From an uncultured virus (IMG/VR IMGVR_UViG_3300037397_000012) (lineage: Duplodnaviria > Heunggongvirae > Uroviricota > Caudoviricetes): 20,000 nucleotides of DNA. Made by a program: the position numbers and the translations under genes. Numbering within the stretch: position 1 is the first letter of the stretch; each line of letters begins with the position of its first letter. Of the stretch, positions 2,738-11,651 are shown one piece after another. Below the pieces are notes generated by a model, which worked only from the letters and a program-made list of their open reading frames with translations, did not search any database and was not told the DNA's origin. The stretch is taken from IMG/VR virus record IMGVR_UViG_3300037397_000012; one strand, given 5' to 3'.

Positions 2738-3739
2738 CTAGTTAATAAATAATATATATAATATAAAAGTTAAATACATAATCAATAAATTGAATCAATA
2801 AATCTTTTTTATTACTCATTTACTGTTTATTGAATATGTTGTTACAACATATACGATAACCGAAAATATTAAAAATGCAAATATAGGGATTATAGAATTA
2901 AATTCAATAACTGGATTTAATCACATAAAACTAGTTCATATAAGTATAGGTACTCATAATCAAATGCAAACATCAAAAATATTTGATCAAACTGCATTTG
3001 ATAGACTAGCATCTATATTTCATTTCCTAGAAGATTTTACTGATAATAATGTATCTGGTATAGATGTTATTGCTGCTAATAATACTAGCGATATTACTAT
3101 TGTAGATATTCAAAACATGCGTCATATAAATTCAGCACATCTTATTGATAATTCAACTCATATATAAGTTAAAAATAACATAAATATTATTTTTATAAAC
3201 TTAATATTTGGTAGCCATGTTATAGTATCATCTGTATCATCATCTTCTGATTTACTTTCCATATATAAATATATTATATAAAAGCAATATAAAGATATTA
3301 ACAATATAGACATTATAAATAAGTTACCAACATACAATCATGCAAGTAATATAATTATGCTTAACATGTAAAATATAACATCTCTGTTTACTCAGTTAAT
3401 TATTTTGAATCATTTCCTACTAACTCTCTTATATAAAAGAATAGAACAAAATGGTATTATTAATATATTAAAAATAGCTGATCATGATATTGTTCATATT
3501 CAAACTTCTAATCCTTTTTCTTTTAATAAAATCAAACTAATAATTGCCGTTAGAAATTCAGGCAATGAACTTGATATAGCATCTAGTGTTGCTCATCTAA
3601 CAGATCAAGTCATTTTAAACTTATTTCATATTATAGATAACTGATCTTCTAGTTCTCATGTAGCATAATTTATTAAAAGCATACATCATAATAATGTAAA
3701 AATAACTCAATAAATATTTCAAACTAATATATTTAACAT
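2738..3739 (-). CDS. Ca2+/cation antiporter (CaCA, Na+/Ca2+ exchanger family; 333 aa)
   Basis: Two alpha-repeat motifs: VRGATLDAISSSLPEFLTA...GIGTISGSAIFNIL and LAAITSIPDTLLSV...GNIDASLSNAVGSNIFDVCIGLGVP; many TM segments; open only with TGA=Gly. Confidence 0.9.
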
Positions 3740-3755
3740 TCTTAATTATATATTT

Positions 3756-3790
3756 AAAAAATAAAAGCCAAGCAATAACTTGGCTTATTA
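3756..3790 (-). terminator. Intrinsic terminator/attenuator between terD and the CaCA gene
   Basis: Minus strand AAGCCAAG-TTATTG-CTTGGCTT-TTATTTTTT. Confidence 0.65.
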
Positions 3791-3793
3791 TCA

Positions 3794-4321
3794 CTATAGA
3801 GATTTAACAACCTCTTCAATGTTACCTTTAAGATAATCTCACATAGCTTTAAAACTATATCAGTCATCTTTGTCAGTTACAACACCTACTACTATAGCAG
3901 TATTGTCACCACCATTTTCTGTCATCTTATATGATGCAAGAACCTCATCAGTCTCGTCATTGTAAACTTTACATTCAGCATTGTTTACATCTTTCAATGT
4001 TTGTCATTTTTTATCTGCTTCATATATATTTACACATATAAAGTATTCACCATCTGCAGTTAAAACGGCATCCATTTTAGCAAATTCATCATCGCCATCT
4101 CATTCACCAGTTAGATTATCATCAGATAATTGAACTCATTTTATTGCATTCTTCTTATTGAAGTAAGCAACCTTATTACTATCTTTATGAAATATAAATA
4201 GATCTAAATCCATAGTTTTCCCTTCAGAAACATCCCAAGATAATCATACTCTTATCTTAGATATATTAGTTCAGTCTTCTTTTTTTAGGTCTAGACTTTG
4301 ACCTTTAGTTAAATCCAACAT
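3794..4321 (-). CDS. terD: TerD family stress/Ca2+-binding protein (175 aa)
   Basis: MLDLTKGQSLDLKKEDG...IRVGLSWD...MDLDL...LSDDNLTGEGDGDDE...VNIYEA...GQTLKDVNNA...FKAMG; hallmark TerD motifs. Confidence 0.9.
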
Positions 4322-6093: not shown

Positions 6094-6579
6094 TTATCAA
6101 ATTAAACTATAAATTGAAACTATTTTATTATTAAATGAATCATATATCTTATTCTTAAATCTACCTCGTAGATGTACGATATACTTTATTCATTTTAATT
6201 CAAATATTATTTTTCAATATTTCTTTTTAAAACTAAAGTTATTTTTAATATACTCAATTGTATCTATATGTTTTATGATCTTATTTGTTATTCATTTTAA
6301 TTTTTCCAATATAGTCACAAACATATCTGTTACACTATAGGTATTACATCTATACTTATTATTATTACACTTAACCATTCATTTAAATTTTATGTATCAA
6401 TGAATTCTTAGGTGATTAATAAAATTAAGCATTTGTCTCTCTGATAATCAGAATCTAATTCACTCAAGTCTAGATATTCATATTATTCAATATGTTTGAA
6501 ATCTAACTTTTATTGTAAATAATATTCTATTAACTTGTTTTTCTGAAATATTTTTAAATAAGTTATTTAAATCTTCCAT
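6094..6579 (-). CDS. Putative winged-helix DNA-binding protein (161 aa)
   Basis: ...GIRFGLSERQMLNFINHLRIHGYIKFKG...CNTYSV resembles the wHTH of phage replication/regulatory proteins. Confidence 0.5.
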
Positions 6580-6584
6580 AATTT

Positions 6585-6725
6585 ATAAAACAAAAAAGAA
6601 TACAGTTGCCTGAATGTATTCTTTTATAAGTTAGTTTTTTTAAAAACTCTCAGGCAAATGAGTTTCTAAAAATGTATCTCCTCAAATTTATGAGTATATA
6701 ATAATAATTCTAAAAATAAAATCAA
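6585..6725 (-). promoter_or_regulatory. Promoter plus two-hairpin kissing-loop leader ending in a terminator, upstream of the wHTH gene
   Basis: TTGATT(6725-6720)-16-TATTAT(6703-6698); hairpin 6637-6672 with loop AUUUGCCUGA; terminator hairpin 6594-6625 with loop UUCAGGCAAC and U-tract. Confidence 0.65.
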
Positions 6726-6743: not shown

Positions 6744-6971
6744 TTAAAATAATCTATTGATAGCTCAAGATAAAGCTAGTTCTCATATTATAAATTTTTT
6801 CCTATCTATTAAACTTTTCTCTGTTCAATATGTAACCATTCAACAACTATAACATATTTCAACTTCTCATTCATTATAAGCTATTTCTATTCAATCTTCT
6901 CTATAATATTTATTTCACGAAAATTTAAATCAGTTTATTTTCATTATATTTGCAAATCTCATATTTTCCAT
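6744..6971 (-). CDS. Hypothetical protein (75 aa)
   Basis: ATG..TAA open with TGA=Gly. Confidence 0.6.
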
Positions 6972-6976
6972 TTTCT

Positions 6977-7126
6977 TTATTTTAATAAATTAATAAAATT
7001 TTTTTCAACATCCATGATTTTAATCTGTTTCATTAATTTTATTTTTTCACTTTTACTCAAATTGAGATACTTAAAAAAAATATCTCTAGTTTCTCTTTTC
7101 ATTCAATCTAACTCTATTAAACTCAT
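6977..7126 (-). CDS. Small hypothetical protein (49 aa)
   Basis: ATG..TAA open, packed in operon. Confidence 0.45.
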
Positions 7127-7204
7127 TTTAATAATTATTATCTAATAAATTAAACCACCTTGTATATTCAATCCTTTCATAACTTATATTCATCAAATAT
7201 GTTT

Positions 7205-7750
7205 TTTATAAATATGGAGGACTAAGTTTAGCCCATAACCTAGGGGTCATAACACCCTAGGATAGAAAAAGAAACCTCGTAGGTTACACGAAATTATTTA
7301 TGTTGCAGTTAAATTACTATCCATGTTAGTACTATACATAAATAGCTAGAGACCTTTTATCTAGAACAAGGTTTTAACATCTCTATGTTATATATATCTA
7401 TGTATATATATATAATAAGAAGTGTTAAATTATAGCTCCACCAAATGAGCTACTCTTAGATATTTTATATAAAAAATAATCATTAACCTTTTATCCAATT
7501 GTTGATGTACCACATCATAGTTGGTTAAACCAATTGCTTTCAGCTAAACATTAAACAATGATCAATCGTTTAATATCCTTATCATTTTAAATAAAAGGCT
7601 ACTGATTATCTTTTATAAAACAAAAAAGCTAACCAATTGGTCAGCTTTTATTACCTAAGTTTGACACCTAGATGGGTCAACAGTACTAGGTGCTGACCAA
7701 ACCTAGGTAACTGTTTTGTTACTTTACAAGAAGTAAAGACAATAGAAAAT
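7205..7750 (-). ncRNA. Putative large structured non-coding RNA / long leader RNA of unknown class
   Basis: No convincing ORF; many nested inverted repeats (7239-7261, 7273-7285, 7373-7429, 7433-7452, 7476-7609 enclosing 7548-7576, 7624-7649, 7651-7710); most G-U pairs favour the minus strand; promoter directly upstream. Confidence 0.55.
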
Positions 7751-7758
7751 GCTTATAT

Positions 7759-7786
7759 ATATTAATATTTTTTTTTATAATTGCAA
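7759..7786 (-). promoter_or_regulatory. Sigma70-like promoter
   Basis: TTGCAA-16-TAATAT followed by ATATAAG, the same downstream sequence as the promoter at 9829-9856. Confidence 0.6.
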
Positions 7787-7793
7787 ATGTTTT

Positions 7794-8318
7794 TTATATT
7801 TTCATTAATTTATCATAACACATCTTAATTATTTTTGCATCAAATAATGCATTATGCTTTATTGTTTCTCACTTGTATCACACAAAGTCTTCTCTTGTTA
7901 TATCTGGATCTACTCACTTTACTTTCATCAATGTACATATATCAAATGGAATATAATATATATTACTAGGTAGATTAGGGTATCAATCCTTGTAATCCGC
8001 TAATAATGTATTAAACAAAACCCAGTCATAAGATAAACAATCACTCCATACTTCTATATTATCTCATTTATCTTTTATCCATTTAAGTAATTTACTTCTA
8101 ATAAATTCTTTTGTTCATGTGAATTCATTCTCATTATCGTGACTTATATCAATATTACTTATTACATTTTCTCTTATCCAGTTATTACATTTTGTCACAT
8201 CATAATCTGTAAACTTTCAATAGAAAGTATCTCAGTCTTCTGATATTAATCATATACTTATTAGCTCTGTATATTGTATTAATCATGTAAACTCACAATC
8301 AAAAAATATTTTATTCAT
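7794..8318 (-). CDS. DEDDh 3'-5' exo(ribo)nuclease, Rv2179c/DUF5051-like (174 aa)
   Basis: KIFFDCEFTGL...LISIGLISEDGDTFY...WIRENVI...WSDCLSYDWVLF...IPFDICTL...DPDITRE...KHNALFDA. Confidence 0.85.
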
Positions 8319-9828: not shown

Positions 9829-9906
9829 ATATTAGTGTATCACTAGTTAATGTCAAAAGATTTTATATAGTTTTTTACTTGTTTTTTATATGACTATTAT
9901 TATAAT
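9829..9906. promoter_or_regulatory. Divergent sigma70-like promoter pair
   Basis: Minus: TTGACA(9856-9851)-16-TAATAT(9834-9829); plus: TTGTTT(9879-9884)-16-TATAAT(9901-9906). Confidence 0.65.
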
Positions 9907-9940
9907 AAATATGTATTTTTTATTTATTAATAATATTATT

Positions 9941-10399
9941 ATGACAAATATTAAGGTTCTAATTGATAATTTAAGAAAAGATCTTTTTGAAAATTTAGAT
10001 AAATCTAAAAAGATACTTTCTATACTTAAAGAAAATCCAGCTTTCCCATATAACCTAGAGATTGAAGCAGCAAAATGTATATGAGAAATAAGAACTGCTA
10101 CATTAAGATATAAAAACATACTTAAATACTTAGAGAATGATAACTCTTTATTGTCTTTAGATAATATAAGAGAATTAACAAAAGACGAAAAAGATGAGTT
10201 TAAAAAACTTCGAAAAGAAAGTAAATCTCTTCCAGATGATTGACCATGAATGAATACTGATGATAGACATAGAATGCTGTCTTTAATGTTTCTTGATCAA
10301 GCCAATAAACTTAAAGATATGGCAATTAAAGAAAATGATGAAAATGCAAAGAAGCAAGCATTAAGAAATTATGAATGATATATTAAGTATTCAAAATAA
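9941..10399 (+). CDS. Hypothetical helical protein (152 aa), the only plus-strand gene found
   Basis: Track ORF extends through in-frame TGA codons to TAA 10397-10399; has its own promoter and terminator. Confidence 0.75.
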
Positions 10400-11435: not shown

Positions 11436-11651
11436 TTATTTTACACAATTTAAATCAAATTCATTTAATGAATCATATATATAATCAATTTTTTCAAACC
11501 CTGTTTCAATTCTTTTTTTGTCTATTATTGTAACTGAATTTCAGTTTATTAGACTATCAATCTTACATCATAAAAATACAAGCATTGCTATTATTATTAG
11601 CAATAGTATGTTTGTTATATTCTTACTTTCTTTAATTCCTATTCCTTTCAT
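11436..11651 (-). CDS. Small single-TM membrane protein (71 aa), possible lysis accessory
   Basis: N-terminal hydrophobic stretch ILLLIIIAMLVFLGC; overlaps the holin-like gene stop. Confidence 0.5.

Follow-up and report, generated by a model that had tools for sequence, protein, structure and literature searches.

What is a stretch of some 400 nucleotides that encodes no protein, yet is full of stems, doing in a densely coded phage genome? The question is raised by positions 7205-7612 of a 20,000-nt window (the whole stretch of DNA analyzed here, part of a 67,120-nt contig), which a first-pass annotation had described as an ORF-free, structured tract in gene-dense surroundings and a candidate large noncoding RNA. 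No credible ORF was found: the longest stop-free run was 37 codons under codes 11, 4, and 25 and 58 codons under code 15, and a run of 132 codons appeared under the ciliate code 6 only. The surroundings are indeed gene-dense. Under code 11, the window appears poor in genes, whereas with TGA read through, the flanking genes open and genes tile the window, nearly all of them on the minus strand.

The genome is that of a code-25 phage (TGA = Gly), a code that is used by Gracilibacteria and Absconditabacteria (PMC10746230). Its code-25 products include a CHAP hydrolase, a holin, VRR-NUC, TerD, a Na/Ca exchanger, and an Rv2179c-like exonuclease. A neighboring 161-aa protein had a homologue in 1 of 204 genomes (E 2.7e-41), which shares its order with a Gracilibacteria MAG, and the gene for this homologue contains 7 in-frame TGA codons. 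Since the genes read in code 25 and this homologue lies in a same-order genome, we conclude that the virus is a phage of a code-25 Patescibacterium. The neighboring proteins were rare, with 3 clusters for the 161-aa protein (48 representatives by its profile) and, besides the window's own, 2 for an 89-aa and 1 for a 75-aa protein. The tract and the genes on either side are arranged as follows.

7794..8318, minus strand: accessory gene for an Rv2179c-like 3'-5' exoribonuclease (PF16473, E 2.9e-10), missing from the one relative
7127..7793: noncoding gap
6977..7126, minus strand: first downstream ORF, 49 aa, no assigned function, without a minus-strand promoter of its own
6744..6971, minus strand: second downstream ORF, 75 aa, no assigned function, likewise without a minus-strand promoter of its own

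A wHTH gene follows at 6579; its model had a pLDDT of 84, and its fold matches were MarR-like (best E 5.5e-3).

Several observations were made elsewhere in the window. The phage carries two host-like genes, the Na/Ca exchanger and terD (2738-3739 and 3794-4321, minus strand), and the stretch in which terD coding ends and its terminator follows (3745-3930, minus strand) forms four strong hairpins in series (z -6.0), the second-best region in our ranking of folding windows. A lone CRISPR-repeat-like stretch at 11503-11534 (minus strand) within a 71-aa ORF matched CRISPR-DR6 at 32.6 bits against a gathering score of 39 (E 0.0017); it is probably due to chance and possibly a decoy repeat. Strong promoters stand back to back at 9856 (minus strand, 13.5 bits) and 9879 (plus strand, 14.5 bits) beside the ORF at 9890-10399 (plus strand), the only clear plus-strand gene of the window, and this may be a regulatory switch region.

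We then compared the folding of the tract with that of shuffled controls. For 7205-7612, the plus strand folded at -90.4 kcal/mol (z -4.95) and the minus strand at -107.2 kcal/mol (z -5.33), and neither value was reached by any of 100 shuffles. The signal on the minus strand was uneven, with z -8.9 for 7465-7616, z -3.4 for 7205-7430, and z -2.4 for 7205-7372; since 2 of 150 shuffles reached the fold of 7205-7372, the 3' part by itself is modest. Among 266 minus-strand windows of 152 nt across the 20 kb, 7465-7616 ranked first, its edges having been chosen by hand and the other windows lying on a grid. All hairpins that had been annotated formed, and the stem 7476-7494/7591-7609, proposed to close a multibranch domain, was confirmed as an inverted repeat. 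Most hairpins were more stable on the minus strand, the exception being 7373-7429 (-16.4 on plus versus -12.9 on minus). Confident G-U pairs over 7205-7752 numbered 21 on minus versus 5 on plus (9 versus 2 in 7430-7616), an asymmetry that favors the minus strand and is confounded by the G excess of that strand. The structure also extended past the annotated end at 7612, to about 7752 (7612-7752, z -6.4). The parts of the originally flagged tract were as follows.

7468..7617, minus strand: domain I, a five-way junction closed by 30 bp (z -8.9; helix probabilities 0.83-0.97)
7617-7603:7482-7468 and 7601-7587:7498-7484, minus strand: closing helices of domain I
7578-7546, 7544-7536, 7533-7521, and 7517-7503, minus strand: hairpins of domain I
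7432..7453, minus strand: hairpin resembling a tRNA D arm (probability 0.96), with no tRNA around it
7373..7429, either strand: long AU-rich hairpin, more stable on plus
7219..7372, minus strand: hairpin array of 7372-7352, 7346-7316, 7295-7273, 7261-7239, and 7234-7219 (probabilities 0.86-0.98)
7486..7495, minus strand: copy 1 of GAUAAAAGGU, 3' strand of a domain I closing helix
7352..7361, minus strand: copy 2 of GAUAAAAGGU, possible alternative partner of 7599-7588

The final hairpin of the array has no U tract, and no terminator stands at the array's end. The two copies of GAUAAAAGGU lie where they had been reported (7495-7486 and 7361-7352), but their excess over chance is weak, any repeated 10-mer occurring in 515 of 2,000 shuffles and one with at least 3 G/C in 88 of 2,000. 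GUUAUG, also put forward as a repeated motif, lost that standing, the number of repeated 6-mers being at chance (12 seen versus 9.4 ± 3.6 expected).

Known RNA families did not account for this structure. Rfam gave nothing at gathering level, with 3 hits in the window (E up to 5) and 19 in 7100-7800 (E up to 10), and the GOLLD, ROOL, OLE, ribozyme, intron, tRNA, and tmRNA models matched neither; since no Rfam family's model recognized the tract, we filed it under none. ARAGORN found no gene for a tRNA or tmRNA anywhere in the 20 kb. Candidates rejected on further inspection were a tmRNA (ARAGORN 0, no Rfam hit); a tRNA, tmRNA, or tRNA-like Y RNA (no canonical T-loop motif, and CCACCA on plus only, inside a hairpin); a tRNA-like mimic that would combine 7453-7432 with 7372-7352 (it matched no model, and its arms are on opposite sides of an indel); and a group I/II intron or small self-cleaving ribozyme, whose core motifs were not found on minus apart from an isolated UAGUC and a single loose D5-like pattern. 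A ribozyme of an as yet undescribed class is conceivable.

Homologues were equally scarce. In INPHARED, blastn returned 12 records with at most 10% cover (best E 0.05) and no true homologue, and tblastn of two neighbor proteins returned 0, as did a plasmid search. An IMG/VR pattern search gave 44 loci, nearly all ordinary tRNA genes (best blastn E 0.07), and other patterns there gave 0, 0, and 5 unrelated loci; the 39 IMG/VR exonuclease loci held no trace of the RNA, and candidates chosen by neighbor genes were negative in 23 of 23, 51 of 51, and 590 of 590 cases. The tract was found in 0 of the 590 candidates listed from JGI metagenomes and in 0 of 235 from GTDB, and none of 9 JGI metagenome pattern matches showed blastn similarity. 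A DNA search of GTDB matched 3 of 401 genomes, 11 of 204, and 8 of 141; every match was a short AT-rich or terminator stretch, the context having been inspected for those that matched again. Covariance models derived from just the one sequence of the window and run without a positive control matched 0, 4 (terminators only), and 0 of 151 genomes. The neighbor profile hit 1 of 401 (weakly), 1 of 204, and 0 of 141 GTDB genomes, and the tract was not present in G488, the one strong carrier of the neighbor homologue. Six supplement files of PMC10690425 (files other than 1, 2, and 4) contained no match, and no mention of such an RNA was found in the main text of bioRxiv 10.64898/2026.10.21.760802. 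Together, these results show a noncoding tract that is real, orphan, and structured.

Among 7 distinct metagenome pattern matches, 4, from unrelated organisms (L195 3001-3023, L196, L198/L200, and L199), had a hairpin with a CCUAG stem and a UGUURACMCA loop like that of hairpin P2 described below, a likeness partly forced by the search pattern. The L195 example is intergenic on a phage-like contig and lies inside a larger fold without an Rfam hit.

To locate transcription signals, we used a promoter matrix trained on 355 upstream regions from two Gracilibacteria genomes (G001, 400 kb; G003, ~290 kb), together with a terminator scan. The elements found around the tract were as follows.

7759..7786, minus strand: host-type promoter TTGCAA-16 nt-TAATAT (12.3 bits), with a start site expected near 7752
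7618..7752, minus strand: module A, some 135 nt long, which may be an attenuator or a small RNA (z -6.4; helix probabilities 0.95-0.98)
7738-7722 (P1), 7711-7650 (P2), and the terminator, minus strand: parts of module A, outside the range first annotated
7618..7649, minus strand: predicted intrinsic terminator, 96% identical over 28 nt to a host hairpin (G016)
7692..7700, minus strand: arm of an antiterminator, able to form 9 Watson-Crick pairs with the terminator's 5' arm, 7645-7637 (-14.0 kcal/mol)
7096..7123, plus strand: weak promoter-like site without a TTG (9.3 bits), inside the 49-aa ORF

The promoter at 7786 was the only site above 6 bits in 7100-7850. A scan of 7127-7720 on both strands gave nothing above 3 bits with the host-trained matrix, which a phage-specific promoter would escape; 7421, considered as a second promoter, scored below 3 bits. 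The whole window held 35 sites above 8 bits, some of them within genes. The terminator, with its hairpin at 7649-7624 (minus strand), was the only terminator-like site in 6900-8100. Of the proposed large noncoding RNA, therefore, what is supported is a structured RNA that is unclassified, no Rfam model matching it; a self-contained 400-nt gene is not supported, there being no promoter above 3 bits in 7127-7720 and no U-tract terminator at the 3' end.

In G001 and G003, the distance from TTG to TATAAT peaked at 15-16 nt (in G001, 12 promoters at 15, 29 at 16, and 4 at 17), and Gracilibacteria promoters thus appear to use a 15-16 nt spacer (L157-L192) and not one of 17; a literature search found no report on promoter spacing in Gracilibacteria. 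A 39-nt direct repeat (72%) links 7388-7426, in the AU hairpin, with 7753-7791, in the promoter region, and the 7388-7426 copy may be what is left of a decayed promoter, or else a promoter specific to the phage.

The antiterminator arm would compete with the terminator's own 3' arm for the same partner. In host controls, 0 of 61 terminator-like hairpins had a complement of at least 8 nt within 115 nt upstream. In the nascent RNA extending to 7637, the antiterminated fold lay 3.7 kcal/mol above the default fold, and once the U tract was made, 7.7 kcal/mol above it; in the full RNA at equilibrium, the antiterminator had a probability of 0.0. These values argue that termination is the default and that a trigger would be needed. 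By prediction, the locus thus has a promoter-proximal terminator before genes together with a mutually exclusive antiterminator fold, the hallmarks of an attenuator. The antiterminator arm could be a local duplication of the terminator's 3' arm.

Other arms also have two possible partners. Two such cases are 7706-7695 with 7233-7222 and 7599-7588 with 7363-7352, the second of which takes in copy 2 of GAUAAAAGGU (helix with 7599-7588 of -11.1 kcal/mol; equilibrium probability 0.0). Overlapping helix pairs numbered 4, compared with at most 2 in 200 shuffles. Because shuffles gave 1.2 such helices by chance and contained fewer helices overall, only the antiterminator was weighed among these rival helices. 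In addition, 7261-7222 resembles the top of P2; with three different gap settings, the resemblance was reached by 0, 1, and 6 out of 300 shuffles, which lose palindromes.

One relative was found, a single 310-nt contig from run X2 (depth 13), which aligns with 7608-7794 apart from 7 differing letters and 5 gaps. In it, 7794 is followed directly by 8335, so that the exonuclease gene is missing; in the window this gene does lie beside the tract (7794..8318), as had been pointed out, but its link with the tract looks incidental. Past 7608, a comparison by eye shows the letters of the relative agreeing with 7398-7427 at 28 of 30 positions, and about 180 nt, comprising domain I and the D-arm-like hairpin, are therefore missing there.

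7428..7607: segment missing in the X2 contig, or replaced by at most 10 letters

Module A is thus kept in the relative, where domain I is dispensable. When the differences were mapped by hand, the change at 7649 kept its pair as G-U, and those in P1 re-registered a 6-bp hairpin. Neither antiterminator arm had a listed change, and this single partial relative offered no two-sided compensatory change for scoring covariation. Both differences in the 7373-7429 hairpin added pairs, as do 74 of 3,915 random substitution pairs (1.9%), a count made post hoc on one contig, in which one change assumes that its undisplayed partner is unaltered and in which RNA and DNA folding are indistinguishable. Run X2 had no cover over 7242-7509, a gap that is uninformative because the probable source run, X1, likewise has no long contig.

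We give about an even chance to the reading that 7752-7127 (minus strand) is one long untranslated leader, 625 nt in length, of a phage operon, the 408 nt first flagged being its read-through half. Host RNA polymerase would start near 7752, at the promoter match, and by default the first 135 nt would fold, as computed, into P1, P2, and the terminator, releasing a small RNA. If 7700-7692 captured 7645-7637, a pairing present in the sequence, the terminator could not form; the trigger is probably, at a guess, some protein or RNA of the phage with affinity for the 14-nt loop of P2. On read-through, the polymerase would make the hairpin-tiled tract and then enter the 49-aa and 75-aa ORFs. The tract would probably act in cis, shielding the untranslated message and offering protein-binding or processing sites, and domain I would be an optional module, perhaps excised as a stable RNA. 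Supporting a leader are the single strong promoter upstream of the terminator, the lack of a terminator at 7205, and a second leader of promoter, hairpin, and terminator in the same phage, that of the wHTH gene. Counting against it, P2 loses a pair through the change at 7701 in the relative, and the AU hairpin 7373-7429 prefers the plus strand.

The leader before the wHTH gene (6725-6580, minus strand) consists of a promoter, a hairpin with UUGCCUGAG, and a terminator directly 5' of the start codon, and its two hairpin loops are complementary over 8 nt. The wHTH-protein gene family comprises 48 representatives. A wHTH homologue in the host-order genome G488 has a similar leader (L152 1044-1190, minus strand) with a 9-nt motif in common, and the wHTH-family leader is a candidate for a conserved, autoregulatory attenuator. 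The terminators of both leaders in the window end in an identical 17-nt tail (7612-7628 and 6583-6599).

A 150-nt five-way junction is not needed in a leader and fits a trans-acting RNA better. The main rival reading, possible if on the improbable side, is that of an ornate noncoding RNA acting in trans, which would comprise all 550 nt (7752-7205) or be a processed fragment of the read-through transcript, domain I being its variable part. Such an RNA could self-assemble through palindromic loops like GOLLD, ROOL, and OLE, or be a protein decoy. Size, helix density, and the two pair-adding changes in the relative speak for it, but the host-type terminator would break the transcript at nt 135, and no 3' end is defined. 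A 12-bp helix could join its ends (7706-7695:7233-7222); its probability is 0.0, and shuffles give 1.2 such helices per 548 nt. GOLLD and ROOL are often found near tRNA islands, whereas the 20-kb window has 0 tRNA genes; the lack of any Rfam similarity and of widespread homologues, which known ornate RNAs have, also counts against the trans-acting reading. Palindromic loop cores are present (GAUC at 7563-7560, and also UCUAGA and UAGUACUA), although by our estimate such loops are common in hairpin-rich AU sequence. The kissing loops of OLE L9.3 switch among GGCC, GAUC, and AGCU (PMC12286853), and the GAUC-cored loop, together with the quality of domain I, keeps the trans-acting reading alive.

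We consider it unlikely that the feature acts at the DNA level or is a mobile relic, with domain I as a MITE- or intron-like insertion or the tract as a folded-DNA origin or terminal-region signal. Domain I has 30-nt inverted ends and is present in one genome and missing in the relative, but these ends are wobble-rich, and since the sequence of their outer 10 bp is still present in the relative, loss of domain I fits better than insertion. No second copy was found in the window, in 0.96 Mb of loci, in 151 host-order genomes by covariance model, or in 204 and 141 genomes by DNA search, and the intron and ribozyme core motifs were not found, with the exceptions named above. A MITE-like element was rejected on the same lack of a second copy and on the junction of the relative, which has no clear single target copy (10 of the 40 loose letters are not displayed). 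Domain I does fold as single-stranded DNA (z -5.5 on minus and -4.4 on plus); nevertheless, no iterons were seen and the GC skew of the window makes no turn, both against an origin. The wHTH gene lies 630 nt downstream and 3 of 22 members of its family have weak replication-initiator hits (E 0.014-0.067), yet the protein's best fold matches, as noted, are to MarR-type regulators. The replication origin or primer RNA that the first-pass annotation had suggested also finds no plus-strand promoter near 7600 for an RNA I/RNA II pair.

Very unlikely, in our view, is a plus-strand RNA of about 500 nt running from the promoter at 7096 to hairpin 7624-7649 as a two-way terminator, antisense to the leader. 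The 9.3-bit site, the plus-strand z of -4.95, and the greater stability of hairpin 7373-7429 on plus agree with it, but the site has no TTG and belongs to the window's 35 sites that exceed 8 bits, domain I folds at -30.7 on plus versus -46.6 on minus, and the terminator scan gives the hairpin on minus only. Finally, that there is no selected RNA function beyond the terminator, only a pile-up of AU-rich palindromes and decayed signals, would suit the lack of a homologue family, the z of -2.4 for 7205-7372, and repeated motifs near chance, but is highly improbable given domain I (z -8.9, first of 266 windows), an antiterminator set against 0 of 61 controls, and pair-adding changes expected in 1.9% of cases by chance.

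If the reading as a switch-gated leader is true, the locus holds a small, testable RNA switch from the Patescibacteria branch of life, and one phage family uses terminator-containing leaders more than once; among the papers listed by literature searches, none dealt in its title or abstract with how phages of code-25 Patescibacteria regulate by RNA. Should a stable RNA come from the tract, the large folded RNAs gain a member that is unrelated to GOLLD, ROOL, and OLE. We think it rather improbable that the tract represents a new class of large structured phage RNA from a code-25 Patescibacteria virus, gated by a 5' switch, whose five-way-junction domain would be optional and act in trans, perhaps by self-assembly via its palindromic loops or by serving as a decoy for proteins of the host or of defense systems. 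As the evidence comes from one genome and one short contig, the tract amounts to a well-defined candidate rather than a family at this point.

Among known systems, ColE1 RNA I/RNA II resembles module A in being a short hairpin RNA with a terminator end, and RF00106 (RNAI) gave a weak structural match; this reached 25.5 bits against a gathering score of 47, and no opposing promoter for a primer RNA lies near 7600. The CI RNA of phage P4 and the C4 RNA of phage P1 are located in a leader. According to PMC5499578, P4 CI and P1/P7 C4 are short RNAs processed by RNase P. On the leader reading, they share with our tract a phage leader, terminators, repeated complementary motifs, and a small folded RNA that could be cut out. 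Unlike these, the tract has no Rfam hit, C4 families included, and its complementary motifs lie in stems and not in open loops. GOLLD, ROOL, and OLE, as described in PMC12286853, are likewise phage-borne, hundreds of bases long, and multi-helix, with a variable domain and palindromic loops; they differ from our tract in that it has no similarity to their models, an internal terminator, and almost no relatives. HK022 put (PMC12360218) and conAn2 (PMC8191782) are also promoter-proximal structured RNAs of mobile elements upstream of terminators. Both modify the polymerase and act on many terminators, whereas here the rival pairing targets one terminator, and we saw no sequence link of the tract to either. 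Closest in layout are transcription attenuators, which, as described in PMC8191782 and PMC2965389, place a promoter, a short leader, an intrinsic terminator, and a mutually exclusive antiterminator before genes. What sets our locus apart from these attenuators is some 490 additional untranslated, folded bases between the terminator and the first ORF, and the lack of a known sensor family. By analogy, then, the tract, a member of no described family, would work like a phage attenuator leader.
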